58,145 nucleotides of DNA from Gemmatimonadota bacterium (lineage in GTDB: Bacteria > Gemmatimonadota > Gemmatimonadetes > Gemmatimonadales > Gemmatimonadaceae): the NCBI GenBank assembly GCA_021298835.1, contig JAJTHG010000029.1, forward strand, positions 1-58,145, in the 5' to 3' direction. Below are positions 1-55,100 of this stretch, one piece after another. The first letter of the stretch is position 1. Each line of letters begins with the position of its first letter. The notes beneath the pieces were generated by a model. It was not told the origin of the DNA and did not search any database. It saw nothing but the letters and a program-made list of their open reading frames with translations. The translations under genes were made by a program, and so were the position numbers.

Positions 1-3000
1 ATGGCCGGCGCGGTCACGGTGACCGTCAGAGGATAGCCGGCCCGCACCGGGGCCTGCGCCGCCCCGGTCGCCGTCGCCGTGACCGTCGTCGTGCCGGCGA
101 CGAGGCCCCGCACTCCGAAGGTCGTGCTCGCGCTGCCGACCGGGATCGTCACCTGTGCCGGCGACCCCGCCGTGCCACCCACCACCGGCACCGCCACGCT
201 CGGCGTGCCGGTCGCGACATCCACGACCACGGCCGCACCACCCGCCCGCAGCGCCTGCTGGGTCACGTTCGTGCCGGCGGCGTTCAGCGGCCCGACCCAC
301 GCCGTCCAGCTCAGGTCCGCCGACAGCGTCGTCGTCGCCGTGCTCCCGCTCGCCTCCACCCCCAGCGGCCGGATCGTCACCGTCGCCGGCGTGGGCGCGG
401 TGTAGTACTGCGCCGGCGCGGCGCTGATCGTCGCCGTCGTCGCCGTCGTGAGGCCTTCGAGGCCGCTGTAGAAGACGCTCACGCTCGAACTGCCCTGCGG
501 GATCGTCAGCGTGAGACTGCCCGTGCCCGTCGTCGTGGCGTTCGGTGCCAGCACCAGGCGTGTCGGGTCGGACGACGTGAAGGTCACGCTCACCCCGCCC
601 GCCGGGGCCGCGGTCTGCAAGTTGTAGCTGATGGACGTCGTCGTTCCCGACCCGACCTCGCTCACGCCGCCGAACGAACTGCTCGGCGCAGGATTCACGG
701 TCACCGACATCGAGTCGGACGCAAACCCAGGCACGGTCGCCACGACGAACGTCGTGCAGGGGGTCGGCGCGGAGCCGCCGTAGCCGAGCGCCGTGGCTAC
801 CTGGGTCTGCCCCTGCGGTACCAGTACTGACGTCGGCACGTTCACGCAGGCGGGATTGCGCGCCGTCAACGACACCGAGATGCCGCCGCTTGGCGCGGCG
901 AACGCCGAGCCGCCACTCGTCAACCGCGACGTGATGACCGCGCTGCTGAAGGCCGTATTCAGGGTCGCCGACGTCTCGATGACGTCGAGGGCGGCCGTGA
1001 CCGTCACGACGGACGTGCCGGTGGCCAGATTCGGGCCCGTCACCGTGACGGTGGTGGAGCCCAGTCCGATACCGTCGAGCAGCGCATTCCCGATCACGAA
1101 TCCCTGCGGCACAACGACCGTCTGCTGCAGCACGGTGACCCGGGTCGGATCGGCCGAGGTGACGGTGAGGGTCGTGCCACCGGGCGGCGCCGGTGTGGGG
1201 AGGGTGATGGGGAGCGTCGTCTGTCGCGTGAATGGTGCGTTGAGTGACAGCGGTACCGAGATCGTGTTGGTTGATACCGGCACCACCAACGAACCGTCGG
1301 TGTAGCCGGCCGTCGTTGCCGTCAGCGTGGCCGAACCTGCGGCGACACCGGTGACGGTGAACGTCGCGGTGGTACCGCCGCTGGCCACCAGCACGGTGGT
1401 CGGGGCCGCGACCGACAGCACCGACGCATTCCCCGAGCTCAGCGACACCGAGACGCCGCCGTTCGGCGCCGGCCTGGCCAGGGTCACGCGGACCTGCTGC
1501 GTGCCGTTCACGCCGACGAGTGGGGTGTTGACGAGCGCCACCGTCTGTCCGGGCAACGTCGCGGTGGCTCCGACGGTCACGCTCGGGTTGGTGCCACCGG
1601 TCGCTTGGGCCGTCAGGGACTGGCCGCCGGTGGTCGGGCCAAGGGTCCACGTGGTCTGGACGCGTCCTGTGGCGTCGGTGGTCGCACTCGACGGCGTCGT
1701 GCTCCCCGATCCGGTGAACGAGACGGTCACGCCCGGGAGGGGCGCGCCGCCAGCGTCACGAACTTCGACGACGATCGGCTGCGGCAGCGCCGCGCCCGTC
1801 AGCCCCGACTGCGCATCGCCACTGACGATGACCATCGCTGCCGGCACCGGCGCGGCGACATCGATGGCCGTCGTGGCACTGGTGAACTCGGCCTGCGCCG
1901 TCACCTGCGAACCGCCCGGTGCCGCGCCGGTCACCACGGCCTGCCGCGCGCCGGCGCTCGTGAGCGTGAGCACGGCCGCGTCGGCGACGCTCCACGTGAC
2001 CGGCACGCTCGCGGGGACCGTGCCCCCGATGGCGTCGGTGGCGGTCGCGTCGATGGTCGCGGTGCCGCCGACGACGATGTTGCCGTTCGTCGGCGTGCGG
2101 GCGAGCGTGAGCTGCGCGATCGGCAGCGGGTCGGCGGGCAGGAGCGTGCGCCGTCCCGCCGCGACGGGATCGACCAGGATGCCGGTGCCGAGCGCGACGT
2201 TGCGGCCGACGCACCAGCGATCGCCCACGGCATCGACCGCGCAGGTGTAGCGATCGCCCACGGCACCCAGCCGCACCGGGTTGCGCGCGTTGAGCACCGT
2301 CGCGGGGGTCGGCACCCACGTGCGGCCGTTGACGCTGCCGCGGCCGGTCTCGCCGTTCTCGTCGTTGCCCCAGCACCACCAGAGCCCGGTGCCGGTCGCG
2401 CGCCCGCACGTGAAGTAGCCGCCGACGCGCAGTTCGGTGTAGCGCGTGAGGCCGTTGACGGCGACGGGTTGCGGGGCCGACTGCGGGCCCGGCACGACGC
2501 CGATGCCGCCCTGCCCCACGAACTGGTCTCCCCAGCACCACGCCTGACCGTCCGTGGCGAGCCCGCAGCCGTGGAACCAGCCGTTGACGACCTGCGTGAA
2601 GCGCACGGTCGTGGCGAGCGGCGTCGGGGACAGCACGTCGCCGGCGTTGCCGGTGCCGGTCGTCCCGCCGAAGCCCCAGCAGTAGCCCTGGCCGTCGGTG
2701 GCCAGCGCACAAGCCCCGGAGCTGCCAGCCGAGACGTCGGTGAACCGGGCGCTGGTGTTGACCGGCGTCGGGACGAGGCGGGGCGCGGTGCTCCCGCTGC
2801 CAAGCCGCCCGTTCGCCGGTTCGCCCCAGCAATGGAGAACGCCGTCAACGCGCACTGCGCACGCGAATCCCTCGTACCCGACGTCGAGCGCGACGTACGG
2901 GCCGGGAACGCTCACCGCCAGTGGCGTGAGGAAGCGGTCGGTGGTGGTGGCGTCGCCCAGCTGACCGGCGTAGTTGGCACCCCAGCACAAGACGCGGCCA

Positions 3001-5321
3001 AGGTCGTCGAGGGCGCAGGCGAAGCCCAAGCCGACGCCGACCTGCCGCCAGTTGCCCGCCGGCAGGGCCACCTCGGCCTCGCGCACGCGGTTCACGTTGG
3101 TACCGTCGGCGAAGCCGGCGTTCGGGTTCGTCCCCTGCCCCCGGCGACCGACGCAGAAGACGCGACCGTTGCGCACCGAGCAGGAGGCGTCGGGCCCGCC
3201 GTCGTCGCGCAGAGCGACGAGAGGCATCGCGGTGCGGGTGCTCGTCGCGGTGACGGCCCCCACCGTGGCCGTCAGGACGACCGCACCGGTCCCGCTGCCG
3301 CGCGAGAGGGTGAAGGTGCGGGGCCCCGTGCGCGTCACGCCGAAGACCTCCGGACGATCCACGGCGAGGTCGGCCGTGACGTCCACCGTGCCGCCGCCGA
3401 TGTCGCGCACCACGAGGGTCGCCGTGACGGGACCCGTCCCGAAGGCGTACGTATCGGCGTCGGGCCCGAGGACGATCTCGATCGCCGCCGCCGCCAACTG
3501 GACGGGGACGATCACCGTGTCGGCGACGACCGGTGTGACCGACTGGACCGTGGCCACGATTCGCGCCAGGCCGCCGGCGACGGCCGTGGCGGTCGCGGTG
3601 AGGGGGCCGGTCGCGCTGACCGTCGCGACCGTCGGGTCGAGCGAGGTCCACGTGACGGCGGCTCCCGGCACCGCCGTGCCTCCGTCGCTGACGGCGGCGG
3701 TGAGGGTCGCCCCGGCGCCGACAGCGGTCAGCGTCGGTACGGGATCCGGCGTGATCGTCACGGCCACGGAGGACGCGGCCGCGACCGTCAGGGTGGCCGC
3801 TCCGCTCAGCGCGGGGGTGGTGCCGTCCACCGTTGCGGTGATCGTGGCGGTGCCCGCCGCCACGCCGGTGGCGATCCCCGTGGCGGAGACGGCGGCGACG
3901 GTCGGGGCGCTCGAACTCCACGTCACGGTGGGGGAGGAGATCGCGGCTCCGCCCGCGTCGCGGACGACCGCTTCGAACGGTCGCGTGGCGCCGACAGCGA
4001 CGGTGCCGGTGGCCGGGAGGACGGCGACCGAGGCGGGAACCTGCGCGACGGTCACGGGGACCTCGTCGCGGACGAGGACCGGCTCACGACCCTGCACCGT
4101 GACGATGATGCGGGTCTCGCCGTTGGCCACGGCCGTGACGGTGCCGTCGGCGCCGACGGTGGCGATTGCCTCGTCGAGCGAGCGGTACTCGATGACGGCG
4201 CCTGCGACGACGTTGCCGCGTCCATCGCGCGGCACGGCGGAGAGCGCGACCGTGGCACCCAAGGCGCCGAGGGTGACGGTCCGCGGCGACGCGACGACCT
4301 GCGTGACGGCACCAGCCGTGGCCGTCGCGTCGAAGCGCGCGGGCACGGCGCTGCCGCTGGTGGCCGCGGCCTGCACGGGACCCGACGTGGAGCCGAGCGT
4401 CCACGTGGCGCTCGCGCGACCGTCGGCGTCGGCGGTGGCCTGCGCGGGGGTGACGGTCCCCTGCCCGGCGTTGGCGGCGAAGGCGATCGACGCCGCCGCC
4501 ACCGGATTGCCGAAGCGGTCGATGGCGCGTGCGACGAGCGGCTGCGGCAGCGGGGTTTCGATGGCACCGGTCTGGCCGCCGCCGGAGATCGCGAGCAGCG
4601 TCGCGACCGGACCGGCGCGCGCGGTGGCACCGAAGGCGAGTGTGGTGCCGGGCAGGCTCGGCGTCTCCGCCGTCGCCCTTTGCGCACCGAGGACCCGTTC
4701 AGCGAGTGTCCACGTGGCGCGGGCGACGCCGGTGGCGTCGGTGCGGGCGGTCGTGAGGCCGGTGCCGCCGGCGTCGCGGTCGAACGTGAAGCGGACCTCG
4801 GCGTCGGGGACGGGATCGCCGCGACGGTCGAGCAGGCGCACGGCGAGGAGTTGCGGGAGGGGATCGCCGACGGGGCCGGTCTGGGCGTCGCCGGCGACGC
4901 GCTCGAGGCGATCGGGGACCTGCCGGATGGTGACTAGGGCCGTCGCGCGCAGGACGCCGAGGGTGCGGACGAGGGCGGTCACCGAGGCGACGCCGCTGCG
5001 GATGGCGGTGACGGTGCCGTCGTCGGTGACGGTCAGGCGCGTCGTGTCGCCGGATTCCCAGCTGATGGTGGTGCCTTCGGGGATGTCCTGGAAGGCGACG
5101 CCGAACTGGTCGAGGAGTTCGAGCGTGAGGCGGGTGGAGGCGCCGTCGTCGAGGGTGAGGGGGGTGGTGGAGAGTCGGGCGGTGCGGACGCGCCGGGTGA
5201 CCGCATCCTCGGGGGAGGCGATGTACTCGGCGCAGGAGATGCCGGTGGCCCCGATGGCGGCCGCCGCGACGAGGCCGCGCCACCGGCGCAGCCACCCGAT
5301 CGCCCGCCCGGTCCTCGTCAT
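1..5321 (-). CDS. Giant secreted Big_2 (bacterial Ig-like group 2) / RCC1-repeat protein. It is partial: the C-terminus runs beyond the window start and the N-terminal ATG is at 5319-5321.
   Basis: Manual minus-strand translation in the frame whose codon top coordinate is congruent to 2 mod 3. N-terminus MTRTGRAIGWLRRWRGLVAAAAIGATGISCAEY is signal-peptide-like. Big_2 motifs such as VTWSSSAPTVAAVSATGIATGVAAGTATI occur near 3840-3960. RCC1-type repeats (GLWWCWGNDENGETG, RWCVGRNVALGTG, CWG...GQLG) occur near 2200-3200, followed by more Big_2 repeats down to position 1. The ORF track lists no minus ORF in this frame, which fits an open frame running off the window edge. The plus-strand 2974..5469 and 1605..4937 ORFs are its low-complexity shadows. 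Confidence 0.7.
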   Translation of the reverse strand, partial: MTRTGRAIGWLRRWRGLVAAAAIGATGISCAEYIASPEDAVTRRVRTARLSTTPLTLDDGASTRLTLELLDQFGVAFQDIPEGTTISWESGDTTRLTVTDDGTVTAIRSGVASVTALVRTLGVLRATALVTIRQVPDRLERVAGDAQTGPVGDPLPQLLAVRLLDRRGDPVPDAEVRFTFDRDAGGTGLTTARTDATGVARATWTLAERVLGAQRATAETPSLPGTTLAFGATARAGPVATLLAISGGGQTGAIETPLPQPLVARAIDRFGNPVAAASIAFAANAGQGTVTPAQATADADGRASATWTLGSTSGPVQAAATSGSAVPARFDATATAGAVTQVVASPRTVTLGALGATVALSAVPRDGRGNVVAGAVIEYRSLDEAIATVGADGTVTAVANGETRIIVTVQGREPVLVRDEVPVTVAQVPASVAVLPATGTVAVGATRPFEAVVRDAGGAAISSPTVTWSSSAPTVAAVSATGIATGVAAGTATITATVDGTTPALSGAATLTVAAASSVAVTITPDPVPTLTAVGAGATLTAAVSDGGTAVPGAAVTWTSLDPTVATVSATGPLTATATAVAGGLARIVATVQSVTPVVADTVIVPVQLAAAAIEIVLGPDADTYAFGTGPVTATLVVRDIGGGTVDVTADLAVDRPEVFGVTRTGPRTFTLSRGSGTGAVVLTATVGAVTATSTRTAMPLVALRDDGGPDASCSVRNGRVFCVGRRGQGTNPNAGFADGTNVNRVREAEVALPAGNWRQVGVGLGFACALDDLGRVLCWGANYAGQLGDATTTDRFLTPLAVSVPGPYVALDVGYEGFACAVRVDGVLHCWGEPANGRLGSGSTAPRLVPTPVNTSARFTDVSAGSSGACALATDGQGYCWGFGGTTGTGNAGDVLSPTPLATTVRFTQVVNGWFHGCGLATDGQAWCWGDQFVGQGGIGVVPGPQSAPQPVAVNGLTRYTELRVGGYFTCGRATGTGLWWCWGNDENGETGRGSVNGRTWVPTPATVLNARNPVRLGAVGDRYTCAVDAVGDRWCVGRNVALGTGILVDPVAAGRRTLLPADPLPIAQLTLARTPTNGNIVVGGTATIDATATDAIGGTVPASVPVTWSVADAAVLTLTSAGARQAVVTGAAPGGSQVTAQAEFTSATTAIDVAAPVPAAMVIVSGDAQSGLTGAALPQPIVVEVRDAGGAPLPGVTVSFTGSGSTTPSSATTDATGRVQTTWTLGPTTGGQSLTAQATGGTNPSVTVGATATLPGQTVALVNTPLVGVNGTQQVRVTLARPAPNGGVSVSLSSGNASVLSVAAPTTVLVASGGTTATFTVTGVAAGSATLTATTAGYTDGSLVVPVSTNTISVPLSLNAPFTRQTTLPITLPTPAPPGGTTLTVTSADPTRVTVLQQTVVVPQGFVIGNALLDGIGLGSTTVTVTGPNLATGTSVVTVTAALDVIETSATLNTAFSSAVITSRLTSGGSAFAAPSGGISVSLTARNPACVNVPTSVLVPQGQTQVATALGYGGSAPTPCTTFVVATVPGFASDSMSVTVNPAPSSSFGGVSEVGSGTTTSISYNLQTAAPAGGVSVTFTSSDPTRLVLAPNATTTGTGSLTLTIPQGSSSVSVFYSGLEGLTTATTATISAAPAQYYTAPTPATVTIRPLGVEASGSTATTTLSADLSWTAWVGPLNAAGTNVTQQALRAGGAAVVVDVATGTPSVAVPVVGGTAGSPAQVTIPVGSASTTFGVRGLVAGTTTVTATATGAAQAPVRAGYPLTVTVTAPA

Positions 5322-7414
5322 CAGAAGGGCCTCGACATCGCCAGCGTCAGGAACGATTCGCGGAAAGCGGGACGCGTGGCAAACGCCGAGTAGGCGTTCC
5401 AGCGCCCCTGCAGCAGCAGCGACGCCTCGTACGGCAGCTGCCACGTGGCCTGAACCCGCGCCGCGGTGACTTGGCGGCCGGCGGTGAAGGTCCGCGAGAG
5501 CGTAGCGGACGAGTTGAGCCGGTCCTTCCACCCGCGGGCCTGCGCGCGGAAGCCGACGAACGCATTGCGCTGCGCCGTGCCCCCGGCCGGTGCCGTCACC
5601 GCCCACGACAGCGAGGGCGCGAGCGCAATGGCATCGGTCAGGTTCACCTGCTCGCTCACGGTGACGTTCTGGACCGTCACGTCGGGGGCCAGAGGGCGCG
5701 GCGCCGCGTCATCGGTGCGCTGGAACGTCCATGCGAGGGTCGTCGTCGCCCTGCGGCCGAAGACGCCATGGGTGAGACCGGCGCCGGTGTTGAGCGACAG
5801 CATCCGCACGTCCCGCCGGAGACTGTCGTCCGGGGCATCGTTGCCGACGAGATTGTAGAGCGCGTTGGCCGAGAGACTCACCGACTCGACCGGCCGCACG
5901 CTGATCGCCGCGACGTAGTTGTCGCGTCCGGTGGTGAACGTCTTCTGGCCGAGGACGTTGTCCGCCATGCGTTGCGCCTGCAGCGACAAGGTGCCGCGCG
6001 CGCCGAGGAACGGGACGGCGCCGCCGAGCATCCACGAGCGGCGGTCGCCGATCAGGTAGCCGAGCCCGAGCGATGTGTACCCGGGACCGATGCGCTCGAC
6101 CTGACCGCGCAGCGAGACGCCGCCGAGGGCGAGCTGGGCCTCGCCGTTCCACGCGACGTCGCCGTGGGTGGAGAGCCGCAAGGGCATCAGGGGATCGAGC
6201 ACGTCCAGCGCGCCCCCTGCCCCGTCAGCGATACGCGGCCGCGTGATGTCGCTCGACAGCAGGGCGCCGGCCACCTCGCCCTTGAGGCGCAGGGTCTGGC
6301 GGAAGAGCGGAAGCTCGAGTGCGAGACCGCCGACCAGATTCTCCTGAGGGCGCGTGGACGCCTGCGGCCGCGGGCGGAACGGGTCGAGCAGCGTGTCGGC
6401 GACGAGCGAGTCGAGCGCGAGGGAATCCGCGATGAGCAGGTTGCGCTCGACCGAGTTCGGGTTGTCCTTGGCATGGGCCACGGAAACGCCGACGCCGAGC
6501 CCGCTTCCGTGGCGCCATTCGAGGTTGCCGGCCGACAGGCGGCGCTCGAAGACGAGCTGGTCGCCGGGCCGCGAGACGGCACGCTGGGTGCGCCCCGTCT
6601 GCACATTCGCCTGCCACCCGCCGAAGCGCAGGTCGAGCCCTGCCCCGCGCGACCGCACACCCTGCACCGTGTACTGGGTCAGGGGTCGCGAGAAGTCGCC
6701 GAGGTAGAGCTTGCCCCAGCTCCACTCCGGGTTGAATCCGGCCTGGTTGATGTTCTGCCGCAGCTGCGTCCCTTCGGAGGAGAACAGCGCGTCGGCGGTC
6801 GCGGAGATGCCGAAGCCGAGGTCGATGCGAGGCGACACCTGGGCGCGCCACGAACTCCCCGGGCGGCGACCCGGCTGGCCGACGCTGCCGTAGGCCTCAC
6901 CTGTCAGGTTGACGTCGCCATGGACGCGCTGCCGGGCGACGCCGTAGAGGGCCCGCATCGCACGCGGGTCGCGCGGCGGCGGCTGGGTGGCCGTGGCGGG
7001 AGCCGCTCTGGTCGCTGCGGCGCGGGACCGCCACGTGGAGTCGGCGCCGATCGCCGCTCGGGGGACCGTACGAGCCGGACCCCAACGCGACCGGATGACC
7101 GCTGACGGTCCGATCAACGACCGCACGGTCGCGGCCTGCTCTGCGGCGACGGACGCCGCGGCCCCGGGCCCATCGGCGGGTCGAGCACACGGAGCGGCGC
7201 AGGCGCTGTCGCGAAGGGAGGGACGCCGCACCGAGTCCGCCGATGCAAGGCGATCGCGTCGCCCATCACCGACGAACGACGGGACGGTGTCCCGCCGCTC
7301 CCCCCGGGATGAGACACCGCGCGGAGCCGCGATCGCGGCCGCGCAGGGCACGAGCATGCAAGCGGCGAACACGCCAATGGCGGTCGCCGGGCGTCGCCGG
7401 AGGCGTCGGATCAC
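5321..7414 (-). CDS. Putative outer-membrane beta-barrel protein (~697 aa).
   Basis: C-terminus ...RESFLTLAMSRPF ends in Phe, with alternating hydrophobic residues typical of OMP barrels. The body is Gly/Ser/Thr/Asn-rich with many short beta-strand-like segments. The proposed GTG start at 7412-7414 gives signal peptide V-IRRLRRRPATAIGVFAACMLVPCAAAIAAP and overlaps the upstream stop as GTGA. The listed ORF 5321..8239 extends further but that part is Arg/Gly junk overlapping the TPR gene. An alternative start at ATG 6958 would lack a signal peptide. Confidence 0.5.
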   Translation of the reverse strand: MIRRLRRRPATAIGVFAACMLVPCAAAIAAPRGVSSRGERRDTVPSFVGDGRRDRLASADSVRRPSLRDSACAAPCARPADGPGAAASVAAEQAATVRSLIGPSAVIRSRWGPARTVPRAAIGADSTWRSRAAATRAAPATATQPPPRDPRAMRALYGVARQRVHGDVNLTGEAYGSVGQPGRRPGSSWRAQVSPRIDLGFGISATADALFSSEGTQLRQNINQAGFNPEWSWGKLYLGDFSRPLTQYTVQGVRSRGAGLDLRFGGWQANVQTGRTQRAVSRPGDQLVFERRLSAGNLEWRHGSGLGVGVSVAHAKDNPNSVERNLLIADSLALDSLVADTLLDPFRPRPQASTRPQENLVGGLALELPLFRQTLRLKGEVAGALLSSDITRPRIADGAGGALDVLDPLMPLRLSTHGDVAWNGEAQLALGGVSLRGQVERIGPGYTSLGLGYLIGDRRSWMLGGAVPFLGARGTLSLQAQRMADNVLGQKTFTTGRDNYVAAISVRPVESVSLSANALYNLVGNDAPDDSLRRDVRMLSLNTGAGLTHGVFGRRATTTLAWTFQRTDDAAPRPLAPDVTVQNVTVSEQVNLTDAIALAPSLSWAVTAPAGGTAQRNAFVGFRAQARGWKDRLNSSATLSRTFTAGRQVTAARVQATWQLPYEASLLLQGRWNAYSAFATRPAFRESFLTLAMSRPF

Positions 7415-8184
7415 TCGGCGCCCCCGGCGCGCGAGCGCGCCACGGCCTGTGCCTCGTCGAGCCGCCCCATGCGCTGCAGGACCTCGACCTCGCGGTCGAG
7501 CAGCGTGACGTCCTTCGGGCGCCGCTGCCGCAGTCGGCGCACCTGCATCAGCAGCCGCTCGAGCGGGTACTCCGGGGCCAGCCCCACGAGCGACCGGAAC
7601 GCCGTCTCGTCCGTCGGCTCGAGTTCGAGGACCGTGACCCATGCCGCGGCCGCCGCCGCCTGTCGTCCGGTCGCGGCCGCCGCGCGGGCGCGGCCGCGAT
7701 GCCACGCCACCGCGGCGGGGTCCCGCCGCGCGAGCACGAGGTACAGTCGGCCCGCCGAGTCGGCGAGGCCGATTCGCATGGCGCGGTCGGCGGCGTGGCC
7801 GAGGATGGTCGCGTTGCGCGGATACAGCGCGGCAATGACGCGCAAGCGACGGTCTCCCCATGCGCCGGCCGCGGCATAACCGTCGAGCGCCATGCGAAGC
7901 GCCTCGACGCTCTGGTCGCGCAGGCGGGCGGCCGCCGTATCGGCCGATACGCGCTCGCCGGTGACGGCGCCGAGCAGCTTTCGCTCGGCCTCCTCGATCC
8001 CGCCCAACGCTGCCGCTGACGCGCCATCGAGTGCCACACGCCGGATCCCCTCGTCGCGGGTCGTCAATGCCGTCGCGACGGCCGAGCGCGGATCGCGCGG
8101 CTGTCCGCCGGCGACCGGGACGGCAGCGGCGTCGAGGACGGCCAACAGCATGGTCGGCACCACCAGTGCCCGCGGTCGCCTCAT
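7411..8184 (-). CDS. Secreted TPR-like helical repeat protein (257 aa).
   Basis: N-terminal signal peptide MRRPRALVVPTMLLAVLDAAAVPVAG. Ala/Leu/Arg-rich helical repeats (AVAWHRGRARAAAATGRQAAAAAAWVTVLELEP...). The start ATG overlaps the upstream stop as ATGA at 8181-8184. Confidence 0.5.
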   Translation of the reverse strand: MRRPRALVVPTMLLAVLDAAAVPVAGGQPRDPRSAVATALTTRDEGIRRVALDGASAAALGGIEEAERKLLGAVTGERVSADTAAARLRDQSVEALRMALDGYAAAGAWGDRRLRVIAALYPRNATILGHAADRAMRIGLADSAGRLYLVLARRDPAAVAWHRGRARAAAATGRQAAAAAAWVTVLELEPTDETAFRSLVGLAPEYPLERLLMQVRRLRQRRPKDVTLLDREVEVLQRMGRLDEAQAVARSRAGGAE

Positions 8185-10202
8185 GGCCGTCGCTCCGCGC
8201 GGGCCCAGGGGCTCGGATCGCTCTCATGCCCGGCGACATCGACCGCCCGCACCACGTAGAAGCTGGCCGCGGTACCGGCCGGATCGACGAACTGCAGCGC
8301 CGTCACCGGAGCCCGGGTGATGCGCCCGTAGCCGCCCGCCGCGGCGGTGGAGCGATAGACGTGGTATCCGGCGAGTCGCGGGTGCACGACGCGTTCCCAT
8401 TCGACGCGGACGCCGCCGGGCTGCAGCGTCGCGGCCGCGAACCGGGGGGGCGACGGGGGCACGTTGTCCACGAGCGACACCGAGTCCCGGATCGGCGCGC
8501 TGCGGTTGCCGGCGCTGTCGATCGCGGTGACGCGATAGACGGCCCGATCGCCGATGCGAAGACCGGAATCGCGAGCGACGAGCGGGGCCCCGACCGGCAG
8601 GCGCCCCAGCGGCACGGAGACCGAGCCCTGCGGGCCGCGCTCGCGCGCGAGTTCGTAGGCTGCGACGTCGAGCGACGCACTGGCGGTGACGCGCAACTCG
8701 ACGGAGCCGTCGGGGCGGACGGTAGCCACGAGCGGACCCGGAGGAGCGGGCGGTTCGTCGTCGGGGACCTGGACGGTGTCCCCGGGACTCTTCGATTGGT
8801 TGTAGAAGCGGTCGAGGGCGACGACCCGGTACACGAGCCGGCGTCCGGGGACGACCGCGCTCGACGAGTCGATGAACAGGCCGCCGCGAATCGCCACCGC
8901 AGTGATCTGTTGGTCGGGCTGCCCGACGGGCCCACGGTAGATGTAAGCGCCGCGATCGCCGGGCGTGGTCGACGGCGTCCAGCGCACGGTGACGCGACGC
9001 CGTGCGGCGGTGACCGTCACGCCGGTGGGAGGCGGTGGGGGCTCGGCGTCATACGGCGTGGCCGAGATGCCGGAGGTGAAGGGCCCCAGGTTGCCGGCCG
9101 AGTCCACCGCCGCCACCCGGTAGAAGTAGACGTCGCCCGCCCGTGCGACCGTGTCCGTGAACTCGGGGACGTCGCGGGGGATCGTGCCCCGGGTGAGGCG
9201 CGTCCAGACGCGCGTCCCGCCGACCGATCGCTCGACGACGTAGCCCGCGACGTCCGGGGTCGGGGCCGCCGCCCAGACGACGCGCACGCGCTCCTGTCCG
9301 GGCTGCGTGACGACCTCGCGCGGGACGGGCGGCGGTTCCCGGTCGCCGAACGCGACGCCGATGCGCGCCGCGCCACCCGGCTCGACACCGGCCCCGTCAA
9401 CGGGGACGACGAGGTAGGTGTAGCGGCTGCCGCCGATCACATCGCGATCGACGAACAGGTACGGCTGCTTCGCCGTGCGGAGGACGGGGAGAATCGTCAG
9501 TGGCGTCCGCGCGCTGTCACCGGAGACCTGCCGCAGCACCCGGAAGCCGAGCACCGCGTCGGCGCCATCGGCGAACTCGGGATAGCGCCACGTGAGCGTC
9601 ACCGCGTCGCGCGACGTGCGCGCCGCGAGCGCGGTGACCGATGGCGTGGGTAGCGGGGCCGCCACGGCCCGACGGAGGAACGGCGAACCGTCCGGCGCGT
9701 CGTCCGGTCCGAGGACCGTCACGCGGTATTCGTAGGCCGCGCCCGGTGCGACGGCGGTATCGACGAGCCGCCGCGCCGTGACCCGCCCGACCGCCGGCAC
9801 CAAGGCACTGAGCAATGTCCCGAGACCGGCGTCAACCTCGAGCCGCCGAATCGCCTCGAGCTCGACGAGGGCCCCCGTCGCCAGCTGCACCGTCTCCATG
9901 CGATCGCCGATGAGGGCGATGGCGTCTGCGGGCTCCCGGACCGCGCGCACGATCCCCGGGTACACCGGCCGCCATTCCCCGGCACCGGTTGCCGGACCGG
10001 CGGGCGAGGCACGTCGCTCGACCCTGAATCCGAAGCGATACGGCAGTCTCCCGGCGACGATCAACACGATCGAATCGCTCGCGGGGATCGCGGACAGGGT
10101 CCGCACCTGCGCCCGCACGGCCGCAGGGAACGCCCCCGCGGTGCCGACCGTCAAAAGGCCGAGCGCGCACGCCGCAGCTGGACGCATCCGTACTCGCGTC
10201 AT
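8181..10202 (-). CDS. Secreted fibronectin type III repeat protein (~673 aa).
   Basis: Signal peptide MTRVRMRPAAACALGLLTVGTAGAFPAAVRAQ. Repeated FN3-type segments: PPxPP linkers, then ...VTVRWTPS..., then Y[RV]V.A[VI]D.AGN.S strand-F/G signatures (YRVAAVDSAGNLGP, YRVTAIDSAGNRSAP, YVVRAVDVAGHESDPS). The start ATG overlaps the giant gene stop as ATGA at 10199-10202. Confidence 0.65.
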   Translation of the reverse strand: MTRVRMRPAAACALGLLTVGTAGAFPAAVRAQVRTLSAIPASDSIVLIVAGRLPYRFGFRVERRASPAGPATGAGEWRPVYPGIVRAVREPADAIALIGDRMETVQLATGALVELEAIRRLEVDAGLGTLLSALVPAVGRVTARRLVDTAVAPGAAYEYRVTVLGPDDAPDGSPFLRRAVAAPLPTPSVTALAARTSRDAVTLTWRYPEFADGADAVLGFRVLRQVSGDSARTPLTILPVLRTAKQPYLFVDRDVIGGSRYTYLVVPVDGAGVEPGGAARIGVAFGDREPPPVPREVVTQPGQERVRVVWAAAPTPDVAGYVVERSVGGTRVWTRLTRGTIPRDVPEFTDTVARAGDVYFYRVAAVDSAGNLGPFTSGISATPYDAEPPPPPTGVTVTAARRRVTVRWTPSTTPGDRGAYIYRGPVGQPDQQITAVAIRGGLFIDSSSAVVPGRRLVYRVVALDRFYNQSKSPGDTVQVPDDEPPAPPGPLVATVRPDGSVELRVTASASLDVAAYELARERGPQGSVSVPLGRLPVGAPLVARDSGLRIGDRAVYRVTAIDSAGNRSAPIRDSVSLVDNVPPSPPRFAAATLQPGGVRVEWERVVHPRLAGYHVYRSTAAAGGYGRITRAPVTALQFVDPAGTAASFYVVRAVDVAGHESDPSPWARAERRP

Positions 10203-13200
10203 GGCGGCCAGCCCTGGCGGGTGGACGTGGTCGCGCGGGCGCCGGACGTGGTCATGCCGGCACCGGACGTGGCCGTCGCAGCGGCCCGATCCCTCATGAC
10301 CGCCCCCGTGGTGCCATCGGGCAACTGCATGGAGGGCGGCCCCTGCTCGATCACGATGCCACGGGATGCCCAGTCCGACCACATTCCCGCCCCGTTACGG
10401 CTCCGGATCATCAAGACCGGCGCGGCCTGACTCGCGTCGCCCGTCGGCACGGCCACCGAGAGGGACGTCGCCCCGGGGGTGAGCGTTCCGCCCAGACTCG
10501 GCGCCGGGGTGCCCCACAAGGCCGCGAGGACGTTCCAGTGGAATCGCCACTCGATCTCGAGCAGTCCCGAGTGGGGATCCGCCGGTGCCGCGAAGCTCGC
10601 GTTCAGGCAGCGCGTGCCAGAACTCACCGTGCCGCAGCTCGCGAGCCACGGCAGTCTCGCCGACGCGATGGTCGGGGTCGCAGGCACCGACCCGTCCCAC
10701 AGCATGTCACCGGCCGCGCCGTAAACGGAGGCCTGCCCGGCGCCGTTGACGGCCTGCAGCGCGACGCGATAGCTGTGCCCGTCCGTCAGTCCCACCGGCG
10801 GCAGGTTGACGCTGATGCCCGAGACCAGCGAGGGCCAGTCAACGGCCGCTCCCCCCGGAAGCTCGCGCACCCATGCGTTCGCGGTGACGTCCCAGATGCC
10901 GTACCGGTAGCCGGCGACGCCGGTCTCGTTGTCCCGCGACAGCCGCAGGGGAGAGAGGACGAAGGTCCCGGCGGAGACGAGATCCGCGCAATAGACCGGG
11001 TCGGCCGGCCCGGTCGGATCCGGGAATCGGAAGGGCGTGGAGGCAAGGACGGGCGAGACGTTGCCGGCCACGTCGAGCGCGACGCCGTAGAGTGTCCAGT
11101 CCCGTTCGAAGGCGCGTCGGGCGCGGGCCCAGGTGCCGGGGTCCATCGTGGAAGCGCTCGGGCCATCGAGGGAGCGCAGCGTCTGCCACGTGTCCGCCTG
11201 CCACGTCGCGGAGTCGTACGCCGCCACCGGCAGGGTGTCGAGCCGCCAGGCAAAACGCTGGACCCCCGAGCGGGTATCGGTGGCGGTGGGCACCCTGAAG
11301 GAGACCACGGCCGGCGCGGGTGCCGCGGACCGGAGCGGCATCATCGTCGGCCGCATGCCCAGGCAGGCGTCGCCGAGGCGCGCGGGTGCGGTGGGGGTCC
11401 CCGTCGAGCGCGGGAATCCGGTCACGGTCCCGGGGGTGCCGCCAAGTGTGCCGCCAAGTGTGACGCCAAGTGTGCCGCCAAGTGTGCCGCCAAGTGTGCC
11501 GCCAGAGCCGCTGCCGATGGCGAGCGCGTTCTCGACGAACCTCGCATTGGCCGGCCACGCGGGCCCCGTCGTATCGAGCGCCACGCCGTCGCTCATCGCG
11601 GCGGTGGGGATCCCGCTGCCGTTCTCGACTTCGACCGTCACGTGAATGGGCGGGGCATCCTCGCGCAGGTCGAGACTCGGCAGGCCGATCCACTGGCGGC
11701 CGCCGACCGAGCGCGCGTTCTCGAGGAGCGTGAAGGACGAGGACGACGCGACCGACTTGTCGATGAAGCCGCTCGCACGGAACAGGGTGAGGCGGCTGTC
11801 GCGGATGCCCGACTCGTGATCGCGCGCATCCCAGCGGAGGATGACGTCGCGCGGATCCCGGACCCATGTCACGAACGGCGTCGTCGCCTGCCGTCGCCCG
11901 CCCTCCCAACGCGGGGCGAGCACGAAGGCAGGGGGGGTGACGTCGGCCCCGGCGGTCGTGGTCGTCGGCCTCACCTGCGTCGAGGCGTCCCACCGCACGA
12001 CGGGGAGGGTGACGACCCCGCTCTGCTGTCCGCGATAGCCGGCGCCTCCCCGCGCCGCCACGGTGACCAGCCCGCTCGGCGGCGGCGGATTGCCGACACG
12101 AGCGGCGCGCCAGGTGGTGAAGGTGGCGGTGCGCACGGATCCGGCGGCGACCGACGGCTGCGTCGCAGAACCGGCGGCGGCCCGTTGGTTGGTGACACCG
12201 CCTCGCAAGGTGGTCGGCGCGCCGAGCGACATGAAGCCCGTTGCCGTCCCCGCCACGTTGTCCCGGATCTGGAACTCGTGGATCCCGTCAGGATGCTGGG
12301 CGTTCCAGCGATAGGTGGTCGTCACGAGGTACCCATCGACTGACGTGGTCACCTGGAAGCCCGACACCGTCGGCACGGTGAGCTCGCGGGCGAGCTCCGC
12401 CTTGCGGGTGGTGAACGTCGCGACCTGCGCGGGCGTCAGCGTGCCGTCGGTCAGCAGGATGCGATCGTAGAGATCGTACAAGGCGCCGGCGGCATCGGCC
12501 TGCACCTGGTTGAGCCGGTCGAGGGCCGCCGCCAGCCGCATGGCATTGGCTCTGGCGATGCCGAAGCTCGTCGCCCGGCGGGTCTCGAGCGCCACCAGCA
12601 GACTGTCGGTGGACTTGCGTGCCGATTCGTAGCCCGCCCGGAACGTGCCCCACCAGAGGTCTTCGCCGAGCTGGTTGGCGTACATCGCGTCGGTCGCACC
12701 GGTGGGACGCGCCGCCGGCGGTTTCTGCGTCAGCGCCTGCAGCCGGTCGGTCCGCTGGGTGATGAGACGCGTGACTTCGCCGGCATTCAACGTCGAGGTC
12801 CGGGCGGCGATCGACTGACTGGCCAGCGGGCGGTCGGCGTCCAGCGCGGCGACTTCACCCCGGAACTCGTTGCGACGCCGGGCGAGATGATTGCCGACCT
12901 GTCCCAGGACGCGGTCGATGCGGGTGACGACGGCCGCGTAGGCGGACGCGGTCGCCATGAGCGAGCCGGACGCGGCGCTGCGCGTCGCGCCACGGACCGA
13001 CGCGAGCACCTGCTCCAGCTCGTCGATCCGGAGTCTCGTGCCCGCGGCGACCGCCGCGCCCTGCGCATCGGACGTCGCGGCTGTCGCGGCGTTATTCCGA
13101 ACGGCGTCGGGTCGTGCAGACATGGTCGGGCCACTGACCAACTGGGCGGCCGTTATCGTCTCGTTCAGCGGTCCGAGCCCCGATTCGCCCTTGCTGCCAG

Positions 13201-51143: not shown

Positions 51144-53026
51144 CGCGGGTCGGGGCCGGCGATCGCCGGCCGGTCGCGCCGCTGGCTCACGGCCCACATG
51201 ACGTCGAACACGAAGCGCCCCAGTCGCGCGGCGTGCTCGTAGTCCACGTAGCGCGGCTCGTCGGTCACCTGGTGGTAGTCCTGCGCGTAGCCGAGCGAGA
51301 GGTACACCGTCGGCAGGTCCTTGCGGACGTAGGCGACCTGGTCGCTCCGGCAGAAGCGGTTGAGCGGGTTCTCGGGAACGTCCCACGAGCGGTCGATCGC
51401 CATCGGCTGCGGGCTGACGGCGTTGACGCTGTCGATGATGTCGCCGAACTCGCGCGACAGGCGGCGCGACCCGAGCGACTGGACCGAGTTCGGGCCGCCG
51501 AACCGCACCTGCTCGACGCGGCCCTTCCCGACCATGTCCATGTTGATCACCGAGACGACCTTGTCGAGCGGCAGCGTGGGATGGTCCACGAACCAGCGCG
51601 ACCCCAGCAGCCCCGATTCCTCGCCCTGGTGGGACATGAAGACGATCGAGCGCGCAGGCCGCGCCTTCGCGAACCGCTCCGCCACCTCGAGCATCACCAC
51701 CGTCCCCGACCCGTCGTCGTCCGCGCCGTTGAAGATCGAGTCGCGGCGCGCCGGTCGCTGCCGCCGCGCATGGGCCAGGAGCGAGTCGATGCGCCCCTGC
51801 TGTTCCGCCGTGGGCCGGCAGACGGGGTCGTTCGCCCCCTGCCGCCGCGTGACGGTGTTGACGGCCCGCAGCGAGTCGTGGTCCACCGGCGCACCGTTGA
51901 AGCCCACGTGATCGTTGTGCGCCCCGACGAGCACGTACTCGGCGGCCCGAGCCGGGTCGCTGCCCCGGAGCACGGCGATCACGTTGCGCACCGGCTCGAC
52001 GGCGGGAGTCCACGCCCAGGTCCACGAGGCGCCGATCGCCTGTCCCTCGGTGCCGACGGCGAGTCCCTCGACGGGCCGCCCGAAGATGGTCGTCGCGGCC
52101 ACGGCCGAGATGGCGGCCGACGGCACGGCGTTCGACGGCGCCGACGGCGCCGTCGGCGCCGTCGGCTGCATGGCGGGCCGCGGGGCGAAGGCCGCCGCGC
52201 GGGCGGCTGCGGGGACGGAATCGAGGCCCACGACGAGGATGCCCGCGACGCCCGCGTCGGCAGCGCGCCGATCACGCGGGCTCGGTGCCGTCGCGGGACG
52301 CGAGGCGCGCAGCGCGGCCTGCTCGGCCTCCCACTTGAGCACGGCCGCCGCGCCGAAGCGATCGGGCACCGAGTCGCAGCGCAGCAGCACCGGGGCGCGC
52401 TGCGGACCGGCGGCCGGCGCGCCCGGCGCCCAGAGGAACACGGCCACCTTGCCGCGGAACCGTGCCGCGTCGAGGGTGACGGTCGTGTCGCCCCAGCGCC
52501 CCGCGAAGACGGCCGGTACGCCGACCAGGTTGGCGGCGGCCGAGGCCCCCGCCGCGACACTCGGCAGCGTGGGAATCCAGTCGCTGCCGCCGACGAGCCG
52601 TCGTCCGCCGACCGTCAGCGACGCGCTGCTCTCCGCGATCTGGAGCGCGCCGAAGGGGAGGGGTTGGAAGTACGTGCCGCCCTCGCCCGCCGGCTCGAAG
52701 CCGAGCCGCCGGAACTCGGCGGCGATGTAGTCGGTGGTCTTGCGGTTGCCGGCGGAGGCGATCGCGCGCCCGCGCATCGAGTCGTCGGCGATCTGGTAGA
52801 GCCGGGTGCGCAGGTCGTTGGGGGTGATGTCGGAGACGGTCGGCCTCGCGGGCCAGGTGGCCGGGCCTTCGTCGGGCCATGCGGGACGTTCGGCCTGCCG
52901 CCGGGACTGCGCGGTGGCATCGACGGCGGTGACGAGGACGAGGACGATGGCGCGGGCTTTGGCGCGGGCGAGGGAGCGAGCGATGGCGCGAGCGATGGCG
53001 CGGGCGAGGGCTGGCGATCGTGGCAT
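51128..53026 (-). CDS. M28 family zinc peptidase with PA domain (secreted).
   Basis: Ala-rich signal peptide MPRSPALARAIARAIARSLARAKARAIVLVLVTAV. ...YVLVGAHNDHVG..., ...NGADDDGSGTVVMLEVAERF..., ...HQGEESGLLGSRWFV..., ...YHQVTDE... are M28 metal-ligand motifs. ATG at 53024-53026. Confidence 0.8.
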   Translation of the reverse strand: MPRSPALARAIARAIARSLARAKARAIVLVLVTAVDATAQSRRQAERPAWPDEGPATWPARPTVSDITPNDLRTRLYQIADDSMRGRAIASAGNRKTTDYIAAEFRRLGFEPAGEGGTYFQPLPFGALQIAESSASLTVGGRRLVGGSDWIPTLPSVAAGASAAANLVGVPAVFAGRWGDTTVTLDAARFRGKVAVFLWAPGAPAAGPQRAPVLLRCDSVPDRFGAAAVLKWEAEQAALRASRPATAPSPRDRRAADAGVAGILVVGLDSVPAAARAAAFAPRPAMQPTAPTAPSAPSNAVPSAAISAVAATTIFGRPVEGLAVGTEGQAIGASWTWAWTPAVEPVRNVIAVLRGSDPARAAEYVLVGAHNDHVGFNGAPVDHDSLRAVNTVTRRQGANDPVCRPTAEQQGRIDSLLAHARRQRPARRDSIFNGADDDGSGTVVMLEVAERFAKARPARSIVFMSHQGEESGLLGSRWFVDHPTLPLDKVVSVINMDMVGKGRVEQVRFGGPNSVQSLGSRRLSREFGDIIDSVNAVSPQPMAIDRSWDVPENPLNRFCRSDQVAYVRKDLPTVYLSLGYAQDYHQVTDEPRYVDYEHAARLGRFVFDVMWAVSQRRDRPAIAGPDPRYPRC

Positions 53027-53133
53027 CGGAGTCGGGAGAACGCGGCGGGGCGTGCCCCGTTCGGGACACGCCCCGCACAATCTCGGTGCCGATGGCGACG
53101 CTGCCTAGGGCAGCACGGTGCCGTGGCGCGACG

Positions 53134-53748
53134 TCAGGGGGCACCGTCGCTCGGCGGCTGCCGGCGCGGGCCGATGACGCCGTCGGGCGGCGGCGTCTGG
53201 CGTGGGGCGCGACCCCCCCACGCGCCGGCTCCGCGACCCGGCCCGCGCCCGGGGCCCAAGGCCCGACCGCTGCCGCGCATGCTGCCGCGCATGCCGTCGC
53301 GCATGCCACCACGCATCCCACCACGCATACGGCGGTTCGCCCGGAAGGCATCGGCCTTCGCGCGCTGATCGGCGGTGAGGATCGTCCGCGCCTCTTGCCG
53401 CGCCTTGAGCGTCGCGAGGGCGCGGTCCATGCGCAGCTGGTGCATACGCTCCATCGCCTTGCGGAGCATGGCCGCGTCGCCTTCGCCCTTCATGGCGTCG
53501 AGGAGGTCGGCGCGAGCGCGAAGCATGTCGCCGGGATTCCCGGGCATGGCGCGGGCCTGCGACGCGGCGAGGGCTTCTAGCCGGGTCACCTGCTCCGCGG
53601 TGAGCCCAAGGGGACCGCGGGCGGCGAGCAGCGCGGCCGCCGGACCGCGGCCGATCGGCGGCGCAGCGGCATCCGGCCCCTGCGCGACCGTGGGCGCGGG
53701 AACGAGCCAGAACGACAGGACGACAGAGGTGATGACGAGCCGACGCAT
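53134..53748 (-). CDS. Periplasmic Spy/CpxP-family (LTXXQ-motif) protein with a Met/Arg/Gly-rich C-terminal tail.
   Basis: Signal peptide MRRLVITSVVLSFWLVPAPTVAQG. Two LTxxQ motifs (LGLTAEQVTRLEAL, LTADQRAKADAF). C-terminal RRMRGGMRGGMRDGMRGSMRGSGRALGPGRGPGRGAG is encoded by repetitive cgcatgcc DNA. Confidence 0.6.
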   Translation of the reverse strand: MRRLVITSVVLSFWLVPAPTVAQGPDAAAPPIGRGPAAALLAARGPLGLTAEQVTRLEALAASQARAMPGNPGDMLRARADLLDAMKGEGDAAMLRKAMERMHQLRMDRALATLKARQEARTILTADQRAKADAFRANRRMRGGMRGGMRDGMRGSMRGSGRALGPGRGPGRGAGAWGGRAPRQTPPPDGVIGPRRQPPSDGAP

Positions 53749-53859
53749 GAGCGGGACCTCGGAAGGCGTGACAGGCGTGCCCTCGGCACGCGGGAGCGGC
53801 GTGGGACCTGCTCCGTGGAAGGTGAGACGGCGCCGCACCCTCGTCGTTAACGTGCAGGC

Positions 53860-54030
53860 ATGCCGTCCATCGCCTTCCTCGGGACCGGGCTCCTCGGCGG
53901 GGCCTTCGTCGAGGCCGCGCTCGGGCGCGGCGAAACCGTCACCGTCTGGAACCGCACGGCGGCCAAGGCCGTGCCGCTGGCGAGCCGCGGGGCTCGCGTC
54001 GCCGCCACGCCTGCCGACGCCGTCCGCGGT
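53860..54030 (+). pseudogene. N-terminal fragment of an NAD(P)-dependent oxidoreductase (3-hydroxyisobutyrate/6-phosphogluconate dehydrogenase-like), truncated by IS insertion.
   Basis: MPSIAFLGTGLLGGAFVEAALGRGETVTVWNRTAAKAVPLASRGARVAATPADAV is a classic Rossmann N-terminus. The reading frame then degenerates (~54030) into IS-derived sequence, and no C-terminal part lies downstream. Confidence 0.5.
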
Positions 54031-54039
54031 GAATCACCC

Positions 54040-55100
54040 CGGGTTTTTCGGAGACTCGGGTTTCCCTTGGGCCAAGGTTCACCTGACATCACGCCGCGTC
54101 TTGCACGCGCGGATGATGGAAGAATCGCTTGACGCTCTCGGGGCGGCGCTGCAGTGACCGCAGTCGGCGGGTGGCGGTCTTCTCCAACTCGGCGCGATCA
54201 CGGGCCGGCGCGCGCCGCGCGACCTGCACCTTTGGGGTCCCCGTCCAGTTACTCGTCGGGGTTGAGCTCCGGCGCACATGGTGGCAGGTAGTGAATCGCG
54301 ATCAGGTCCGCGTGTTCGGCCATTCAGGCGCGCACGGCCTTCGCCATGTGCACGTTGAGATTGTCGAGGAGCAGCACGACCTTGCACCCCGCGTCCGTGC
54401 GCAGGCGCCTGAGGAACGTGATCCGCGTGGGCGCATCGACGGCCTTCGTGAGCACCATGAAGCGGAGGAGGCCGCTGTTGCTGATCGCGGAGAGGTAGCT
54501 GACCGATTTCCGCTGCGACAGGATCGGACGCACGGGTGTCTTTCCGTTCGGCGCGACGCCGCGGCCGCGCCGATCCGGATGATCTCCTCGCCCGCGCCCG
54601 GATCGAGCCCGGTGGTCTCGGTGTCGAACACCGTGCAGGTGAGCCCGGCGAGCGCGCGCACGCCGAGCCCGCCGGCGGCGCCGACGCGCCGGCCAGCGGC
54701 AGCAGGAAGTGGAAGACGGCGCGATGCGCGGTGCGCTCGCCCGGCGGTACGAGCCGCAGCTGCAGCCGCATCGTGCCCCAGCCCTGCTCCAGGCGCAGCG
54801 ACAGGTGCACCTGGGCCTGGAGCAGCGAGAAGCTCTCCACCTTCAGCTACAGCGCGGGGTCAACCTCCGACAGCCGCACCCGGCTCGCGCAGACGGCCTC
54901 GTGGATGCGCGCGGCAAGCGCCCCGATCTCCTCGCGCACCACGGCCAGCAGGCGCTCGCGCGCGGGCGCGTCGAGGGCGGGGTCGTCGAGCAGATCGACG
55001 GCAGCCTGGATGCTGCCCACCGCGCTGCGGCTGCCCTCGGTCAGGCGGTGCAGAAGCCGGTCTCGCTCGCCGTCGTCGGCGAGCTCGCGGGTGATGTTGT
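54040..55100 (-). mobile_element. Degenerate IS630-family transposase pseudogene (multiple frameshifts).
   Basis: Minus-strand fragments in three frames: TVFDTETTGLDP... (first-Asp region), ...APNGKTPVRPILSQRKSVSYLSAISNSGLLRFMVL...KVVLLLDNLNVHMAKAVRAWLAEHADLIAIHYLPPCAPELNPDE (D...E region), and the C-terminal tail ...RDRAELEKTATRRLRSLQRRPESVKRFFHHPRVQDAA. The ~1.06-kb span is of IS630 size. Confidence 0.55.

Follow-up and report, generated by a model that had tools for sequence, protein, structure and literature searches.

What is the function of the long tail, rich in methionine, arginine and glycine, at the C-terminus of a small chaperone-like protein of the Gemmatimonadota? The question was raised by a gene on the minus strand of a 58,145-nucleotide stretch of DNA (the window) with a G+C content of 73%, which comes from a Gemmatimonadota bacterium of the Gemmatimonadaceae (assembly GCA_021298835.1, contig JAJTHG010000029.1, positions 1 to 58,145). 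The gene, called the LTXXQ gene here after the Pfam family of its product, is a complete coding sequence at 53134..53748 and encodes a 204-amino-acid protein of the Spy/CpxP family. A preliminary description, made from the sequence alone, had seen in the tail the hallmark of copper- and silver-binding Met motifs. The reading favored here is that the protein would be a holdase controlled by a sigma factor of the extracytoplasmic function (ECF) type and would use its disordered tail to capture clients, a proposal whose chances we judge to be about even.

The LTXXQ protein belongs to the Spy/CpxP/ZraP (LTXXQ) family of envelope-stress proteins, which act without ATP, and is soluble and periplasmic. 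Residues 47-134 matched Pfam LTXXQ (PF07813) with E = 2.1e-7 and 32.0 bits, above the gathering cut-off of 24.3. The match to the ZraP-type Pfam model Metal_resist (PF13801), at 19.2 bits, was below its gathering score of 29.2, and NCBIfam returned no meaningful match. An AlphaFold2 model built on 60 homologs contained helices at residues 36-147, with predicted local distance difference test (pLDDT) values mostly above 90, and coil at residues 148-204 (pLDDT 50-65). The helices formed an all-helical hairpin, or cradle, like that of Spy and CpxP. A Foldseek comparison with the PDB placed only Spy (3o39), CpxP (3qzc), Salmonella STV (5io8), and CnrXs among the top 19 matches, at target template modeling (TM) scores of 0.61-0.73 and weak E-values of 0.07-1.4. 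The Pfam match and the predicted fold bear out the Spy/CpxP-like identity given in the preliminary description.

The two LTxxQ motifs named there are also present: LTAEQ at residues 49-53 (53590-53604, minus strand) and LTADQ at residues 124-128 (53365-53379, minus strand), the L and Q of which were invariant in the 60 homologs. Invariant residues of the core in this alignment were L47, L49, Q53, E58, A85, R121, L124, and Q128. Together with the AlphaFold2 helices and the Foldseek matches, these residues delimited a helical LTXXQ core at residues about 35-139 (53332..53646, minus strand). The periplasmic location that had been claimed agrees with a Sec-type signal peptide recognized by inspection at residues 1-22 (53683..53748, minus strand). 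Its sequence, MRRLVITSVVLSFWLVPAPTVA with putative cleavage before QG, shows a basic n-region, then a hydrophobic core of 13 residues and a cleavage-type site between TVA and Q. An equivalent ending, A-x-A followed by Q, was seen in most homologs, which had comparable N-termini, and the protein is predicted from this signal peptide to be periplasmic or secreted.

Beyond the core, five tandem M-R-(G/D)-(G/S) units occupy residues 141-160 (53269..53328, minus strand) and are encoded by the 12-nt repeat ATGCG(T/C)G(G/A)(T/C)(G/A)G(G/C). Tandem Repeats Finder detected the repeat at 53272-53328 as an array of period 12, with 4.8 copies, 86% matches and a score of 65. The units are followed by a Gly/Pro/Arg-rich disordered segment, GRALGPGRGPGRGAGAWGGRAPRQT, at residues 161-185 (53194..53268, minus strand; coil, pLDDT about 50) and by a Pro-rich, weakly acidic C-terminal end, PPPDGVIGPRRQPPSDGAP, at residues 186-204 (53137..53193, minus strand), which is near-identical in the ortholog P0002. 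The peptide quoted in the preliminary description, ...RRMRGGMRGGMRDGMRGSMRGS... and then GRALGPGRGPGRGAGAWGGRAPRQTPPPDGVIGPRRQPPSDGAP, was found in the translation of the open reading frame (ORF). Its Gly/Pro/Arg-rich tail and short DNA repeats were recovered as well, and the tail is Met-rich, Gly-rich and predicted to be disordered. The coordinates given for it, 53134-53340, take in the tail and not the whole gene, 53134-53748.

The background frequency of Met, taken from 10,864 residues of the other proteins in the window, was 1.3%. Against this background, the five Met within 23 residues of the repeat block had a binomial p of about 1e-5. In a 68-residue tail the p values were 0.002 for five Met, 3e-5 for 19 Gly, and 9e-4 for 14 Arg. 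The tail is 7% Met and 21% Arg, with a net charge of +11 and neither His nor Cys; Arg follows each Met, and the spacing of the Met residues is strictly i,i+4 (MRxxM). The mature protein as a whole contains no Cys and one His (H103, in the core). Its Met content of 6.6% is five times the background, with core and tail both enriched.

In this branch of the family, tails rich in Met and Gly are the norm. Of 60 word-seeded homologs, 59 have a tail with abundant G, R, P, and M. A further 141 cluster representatives, which were among the best 150 matches of an exhaustive hidden Markov model search (6,675 matches at E <= 0.001), gave 12% M, 22% G, 17% R, and 12% P. As a control for bias, loci in species-representative genomes were located by a peptide pattern of the core only, independent of the tail. 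All 59 genome loci found in this way were labeled Gemmatimonadota except one metagenome-assembled genome, and the subfamily is confined to Gemmatimonadota. The exception (locus L062), labeled 'Candidatus Kuenenia stuttgartiensis', carries a GGQMR-repeat tail and the promoter motif described below, and is probably a mis-binned Gemmatimonadota contig.

The 57 complete tails, that of the window included, consisted of 25.6% G, 16.5% R, 13.9% P, 10.6% M, and 7.7% Q. In rounded figures, the tails from 56 species-level Gemmatimonadota genomes were 26% G, 16% R, 14% P, and 11% M. At least three Met were present in 48 of the 57, at least two His in 10, and Cys in 2. Median net charge was +11, and the modal Met spacing was i,i+4, followed by 1, 5, and 3 (range 1 to 8). 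The MR dipeptide was observed 140 times against 71 +/- 7 in shuffles and the GM dipeptide 196 times against 123 +/- 9, both counts being inflated by the tandem repeats. Met was about 8-fold over background in nearly all tails, an excess that GC drift in 73% GC DNA cannot explain because the Met codon is ATG. Repeat units differed by lineage (MRGG, MRGE, GGMRQ, GNAMR, GAMRP, GMQR, MGPG, and GMMP), so the trait has been rebuilt by repeated independent expansions. The tails ranged from 21 to 172 residues and were unalignable between clades. The preliminary description had staked its case on a tail neither absent nor unconserved in orthologs, and conserved it is; the phrase that the tail was 'grafted onto' a chaperone scaffold is misleading, since such tails are usual in the branch and are no add-on to one protein.

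Omega was estimated for the window gene and P0002, the closest ortholog that is distinct from it (74% identity); only this one pair was compared, and the counts are small. The values were 0.155 for the core, 0.218 for the tail where it could be aligned, about 0.09 for the repeat block and 0.52 for the signal peptide, which evolves fastest. The pair differed by one 12-residue indel, a deletion in P0002 within segment 161-185, and the C-terminal end of P0002, PPPEGVISPRRQPPSDGLP, was near-identical to that of the window protein. Among strains of at least 90% identity, unit 4 of the array read MRGS, MRDG, or MRGG and one allele had six units; the changes affected the number of units and their third and fourth positions, with M and R unchanged throughout. 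One homolog (P0057) has no C-terminal tail and has a comparable Met/Arg/Gly segment N-terminal to the core, which argues for a composition-based, position-independent function of the disordered region. These comparisons indicate that the tail is under purifying selection, and that the selection is for composition and not for sequence.

The repeat array was also polymorphic between near-identical strains (L001-L004, P0207-P0211), in which a 2-nt change makes unit 4 the same as unit 5 in the window; the polymorphism points to slippage or conversion in the 12-nt array. At the end of the tail, P199 was conserved in at least 90% of the 60-sequence alignment. A universal C-terminal motif was considered and rejected: an ending of PP-x-(D/E)-(G/S/T) or PPVPP was present in only 24 of 57 tails and is a loose trait.

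The LTXXQ gene is preceded by TTAAC-N16-CGTC, a promoter-like motif of ECF-sigma type with putative -35 and -10 elements (53826..53850, minus strand), about 78-100 nt upstream of the ATG. An alignment of the 111-nt upstream region in three diverged orthologs revealed a conserved block, and in 55 of 60 Gemmatimonadota loci cTTAAC-N16-CGTCcAa lay 60-100 nt before the start codon. Across both strands of 614 kb of fetched loci, TTAAC-N16/17-CGTC had 63 matches, all of them upstream of an LTXXQ gene and in sense orientation. In the window, 53826-53850 was the sole match to TTAAC-N16-CGTC on either strand (0.03 expected). Four His-tailed members had the variant cTAAC-N17-CGTC. Typical ECF promoters have AAC at -35 and CGT at -10 (PMC5758882), and from its motif the element is a putative ECF-sigma-type promoter. 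A scan of 52900-54000 for the sigma-70 promoter consensus found nothing.

On the 3' side of the stop codon, two hairpins (53027..53133, minus strand) had an RNA folding energy of -61.8 kcal/mol (z = -4.6; 0/200 shuffles as stable). This region includes a 13-bp G+C stem (53047-53074, minus strand) between the LTXXQ stop and the start of an M28 peptidase gene. A scan of 52900-54000 for the intrinsic-terminator consensus found nothing; it missed the hairpins because they have no T run. They may be a terminator without a U-tract that separates the two genes. Rfam gave a single chance-level match (mir-3957, E = 0.62). With the TTAAC-N16-CGTC motif before it and the strong hairpin after it, the LTXXQ gene looks like a monocistronic, ECF-controlled unit that a stress pathway would switch. 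An operon with the downstream M28 peptidase was considered and rejected; the synteny is kept in close relatives, but the intergenic hairpins and the loss of this neighbor in other clades argue against an obligate functional pair.

The ORF of 615 nt, stop codon included, starts with the ATG at 53748, and its G+C content by codon position is 0.79/0.63/0.85. GAGG, read directly from the sequence and resembling a ribosome-binding site, lies 8 nt before the ATG (53757..53760, minus strand). The 204-amino-acid start was the choice of the gene callers on four near-identical contigs. A longer start, the GTG at 53838, was rejected because the ATG at 53748 has the GAGG and a canonical signal peptide, and was called on all near-identical contigs. 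NCBI lists an identical protein under the name 'Spy/CpxP family protein refolding chaperone [Gemmatimonadota bacterium]' (P0207 = MCE2941980.1, and others). The LTXXQ protein is an already annotated member of a well-known chaperone family.

The mechanism that we favor begins with an extracytoplasmic stress pathway, which most likely switches the gene on through the TTAAC-N16-CGTC promoter. The helical cradle of the product is followed by a 64-residue disordered, strongly cationic tail (+11) with Met and Arg embedded in Gly/Pro, part of it presumably built or remodeled by slippage or conversion of the 12-nt repeat. This tail would act as the flexible arm with which an ATP-independent holdase captures its clients. 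The contacts made by Arg would be long-range electrostatic and cation-pi in nature, those made by Met malleable hydrophobic and sulfur-aromatic, and Gly/Pro would hold the tail in an extended state. The capture radius of the Spy-like cradle would thereby be widened for unfolded, acidic or aromatic-rich envelope proteins.

Spy of E. coli (PDB 3o39) was the best structural match (Foldseek probability 1.00, target TM 0.69). The points of likeness are the Pfam LTXXQ family, the periplasmic location, the small size, and disordered termini flanking a helical cradle. The spy gene belongs to a stress regulon, as the window gene may do, and the Met residues of Spy are functionally important (PMC12503329). 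In Spy, Met of the core is needed for chaperone activity and a disordered terminus modulates client release (PMC12503329). Unlike the window protein, Spy has short termini without Met-Arg-Gly repeats; identity is about 24% over the aligned fold; and Spy is under Bae and Cpx two-component control, whereas the window gene has a putative ECF-type promoter.

Several observations weigh against the holdase assignment. Chaperone activity and the role of the tail are argued by analogy with relatives of only ~20-24% identity over the fold, the Foldseek E-values were weak, though all of the top 19 matches come from the same superfamily, and a PDB sequence search with the whole protein gave chance matches only (E above 0.1). 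No cognate ECF sigma gene was present in the flanks, and the promoter is assigned from its motif. The tail of the window protein has only five Met. Finally, metal-capable tails exist in the family (ZraP and a clade in a copper context), and a Met-rich flexible peptide is chemically able to bind Cu(I)/Ag(I).

Foremost among the alternatives, though unlikely in our view, is a tail that works as a switch. Through Cu(I)/Ag(I) binding or Met oxidation, such a tail would make the Spy-like cradle a sensing or feedback element of an uncharacterized Gemmatimonadota ECF sigma envelope-stress pathway, of which the gene would be the signature target, recognizable by its dedicated TTAAC-N16-CGTC promoter.

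Metal binding ranks next and is likewise improbable. Here the Met thioethers would bind Cu(I)/Ag(I), and the protein would be a metal-buffering or metal-responsive periplasmic chaperone or a sensor accessory, as ZraP is with zinc. The five Met do lie in a flexible, Gly-rich segment, as in the Met-rich Cu(I)/Ag(I) motifs of CopA/PcoA, PcoC/CopC, CusF, the CueO insert, the Ctr1 'Mets' and SilE/PcoE, where multiple Met occur in a flexible extracytoplasmic segment. These classical motifs take the form MxM, MxxM or Met with His and are encoded in metal-resistance loci; known Met motifs pair Met with His, Asp, Ser or Gln. The window tail, by contrast, has MxxxM spacing, places Arg after each Met, lacks His, and stands in no metal-related genomic context. 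Met-Arg pairs with a charge of +11 are electrostatically unfavorable for a cation, the spacing of i,i+4 in the window tail varies from 1 to 8 across orthologs, and the constraint is on the M-R pair and not on Met alone. The hallmark claimed in the preliminary description was not supported on these grounds. Its suggestion that cop/cus or two-component genes might lie nearby was not borne out either: no cop, cus, pco, or sil genes were found within 10 kb in four synteny classes of Arg-rich relatives or in the 58-kb window, and histidine kinase and response regulator genes were likewise absent, both from the window and within 10 kb in every context.

The precedent for metal binding within the superfamily is ZraP, the zinc-dependent chaperone and ZraSR repressor of E. 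coli and Salmonella. E. coli ZraP has the tail GMGMGYGGCGGGGHMGMGHW, and its Gly/Met-rich C-terminal tail, GIPRGAGMGMGYGGCGGGGHMGMGHW, is a precedent for a low-complexity tail on this scaffold. ZraP has been described as specific for zinc and as having two zinc-binding domains (PMC9175090). The differences are that the ZraP tail contains Cys and His and almost no Arg, whereas the window tail lacks both Cys and His and consists of Arg to 21%, and that the Gly-rich terminal metal motifs of ZraP, HGGHG and GGCGGGGHMGMGHW, are absent from the window protein. In E. coli, zraP, zraS, and zraR are adjacent, whereas the window gene has no two-component neighbor. The Metal_resist match could be taken in favor of metal binding, but it is weak and below threshold. 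Met/His tails also occur in some Gemmatimonadota members (the 10 of 57 with at least two His). The present case is a warning not to take every Gly-rich periplasmic segment with spaced Met for a copper site.

Distant relatives have Met/His/Cys tails. In a distant Arg-poor branch (P0059 at L010-L012, P0152, P0166, P0170, P0177, P0182, and others), the tails are Met-rich, with CPMM and His motifs at both ends. In the P0059 context, the only one read, DUF2933 and then DUF411 come after the LTXXQ gene, and a Cu P-type ATPase lies upstream. This scaffold can therefore carry tails that bind metal, and members of the Arg-poor CPMM/His branch appear to be the better candidates for copper-binding Spy-like proteins.

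More doubtful is a regulatory role, in which the protein would be mainly a feedback modulator, like CpxP, ZraP or CnrX, of its own ECF sigma/anti-sigma pathway, and the tail would serve for docking or as a degron, to be titrated, or cut by periplasmic proteases, when stress occurs. CnrX/NccX, the periplasmic Ni/Co sensor of the CnrYXH ECF system of Cupriavidus, gave the highest TM scores (0.66-0.73), and CnrX signals to an ECF sigma factor. The likeness is confined to the fold: CnrX is anchored in the membrane and binds metal at a His3-Glu(-Met) site, while the window protein has a cleavable-looking signal peptide, a single His and no cnrY- or cnrH-like neighbors. CpxP, the CpxA inhibitor (PDB 3qzc), has two LTXXQ motifs and the same fold, and is strongly induced within its own stress regulon. 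It has no Met-Arg-Gly tail, and no Cpx system adjoins the window gene. Both CpxP and ZraP are induced by, and inhibit, their own two-component systems (PMC10848872). Also consistent with regulation are the promoter motif dedicated to LTXXQ genes, the Pro-rich C-terminal end with its conserved P199, which could be a docking motif, and secreted peptidase neighbors in two synteny classes (M28; S9). However, no sigma, anti-sigma or sensor gene was adjacent in any context, and the C-terminal motif is limited to 24 of the 57 tails. A regulatory role does not exclude a chaperone role.

Protection or signaling by Met oxidation is less probable again. Exposed Met would be an oxidant sink or an oxidation switch, and formation of Met sulfoxide by HOCl/H2O2 would protect the core or tune the stickiness of the tail and its chaperone or regulatory activity. 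Parallels are offered by MrpX, a peptide rich in Met, and by yeast ataxin-2 with its Met-rich low-complexity domain. The 6.6% Met of the mature protein, spread over core and tail, and an ECF-type promoter compatible with control by oxidative or envelope stress are in keeping with this proposal. Spy is inactivated by Met oxidation and repaired by MsrPQ, and Met of its disordered terminus has been proposed to be 'oxidant sponges' (PMC12503329). Against it, the five tail Met (7%) are far below what dedicated scavenger peptides contain, a point on which the tail is unlike MrpX-like sacrificial peptides, which are very high in Met and linked to genes for periplasmic Met sulfoxide reductase; no msrP/msrQ or other Msr genes were nearby in the contexts read; and the equally strong constraint on Arg would be left unexplained.

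A functionless tail, arising as low-complexity sequence from repeat slippage in a GC-rich genome, would fit the variation in 12-nt copy number and units between strains, the range of tail length, the lack of alignment between clades and the GC-rich codons of Gly, Arg, Pro, and Ala, but it is very improbable in view of the 8-fold Met enrichment, the MR and GM dipeptides far above shuffle expectation, the low omega of the tail (0.22) and of the repeat block (0.09), the M and R invariant among strain variants, and the retention of tails in 59/60 and 48/57 sampled homologs.

The LTXXQ gene has different neighbors in different clades. In the clade of the window the order is argG, S8 peptidase, NAD-binding dehydrogenase (divergent), LTXXQ, M28 peptidase, MFS, and GH77. 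Two other Arg-rich clades have other neighbors: a Bat-like cluster with MobA and XdhC in one, and an S9 peptidase with an amidohydrolase in the other. The other genes of the window code for RCC1/Ig-like and giant surface-type proteins, for an SPFH protein, for Rho, ThiE, and Fpg, and for metabolic enzymes.

Some loci outside the clade of the window (among them L023, L027, L029, L038, L048, and L063) have a conserved leader, gtGAAGCGGGCGCC-N4-6-GGCGA(A/C)CGC, 10-45 nt after CGTC, where the mRNA is predicted to have its 5' end. The leader can fold into a stem of 9 bp that includes one G-A mismatch, with a larger loop insert in some loci, and may be a 5' stabilizing hairpin or a regulator site. 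In the window, a second 12-nt repeat at 52945-53011, CGATGGCGCGGG (5.6 copies), encodes ARAIARAIARSLARAKARAI in the N-terminal, signal-peptide-proximal region of the M28 peptidase.

From ~54133 to the end of the window (58145) lies DNA of an insertion of about 5.6 kb, in which fragments of IS630-like DDE_3 type are accompanied by genes for a DDE_Tnp_1 transposase, an HxlR regulator and a NAD_binding_10 protein. The divergent NAD_binding_2 dehydrogenase gene has its 5' end split or duplicated by the insertion, with a 90-amino-acid fragment left at 53860-54132, and the LTXXQ promoter region is intact. Two near-identical contigs share the insertion with the window, and two others lack it (L001/L002 vs L003/L004). 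Elsewhere in the window, a single ORF of 6,808 codons (10199-30622, minus strand) has coding-type G+C at the third codon position (0.91), and its N-terminal 3,000 residues had no Pfam match at E <= 1e-5. Near it are a protein of about 1,900 amino acids with RCC1 repeats, Big_1/Big_2 and a macroglobulin MG4 domain (6-5708, minus strand) and a protein of about 737 amino acids with a weak fn3 match (8184-10394, minus strand). The giant ORF and these two neighbors may be a surface-protein cluster.

The bare finding of a known, already annotated chaperone family member is ordinary. No description of Met/Arg-rich tails on ZraP/CpxP/Spy/LTXXQ proteins was found in the literature searched, and in that literature the phylum-wide, constrained Met-Arg-Gly tail with its dedicated ECF-type promoter appears to be undescribed. 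Apparently new is the combination in Gemmatimonadota of a Spy-like cradle, a disordered cationic tail constrained in Met and Arg, and a dedicated, putative ECF-type promoter. An ECF-controlled unit fits the habit of Spy, CpxP, and ZraP, which are flagship members of envelope-stress regulons, and the promoter motif offers a practical means to define an envelope-stress regulon in a phylum that has been little studied. If the tail does aid client capture, these proteins would be a natural test case of disordered Met/Arg 'stickers' that extend ATP-independent chaperones.

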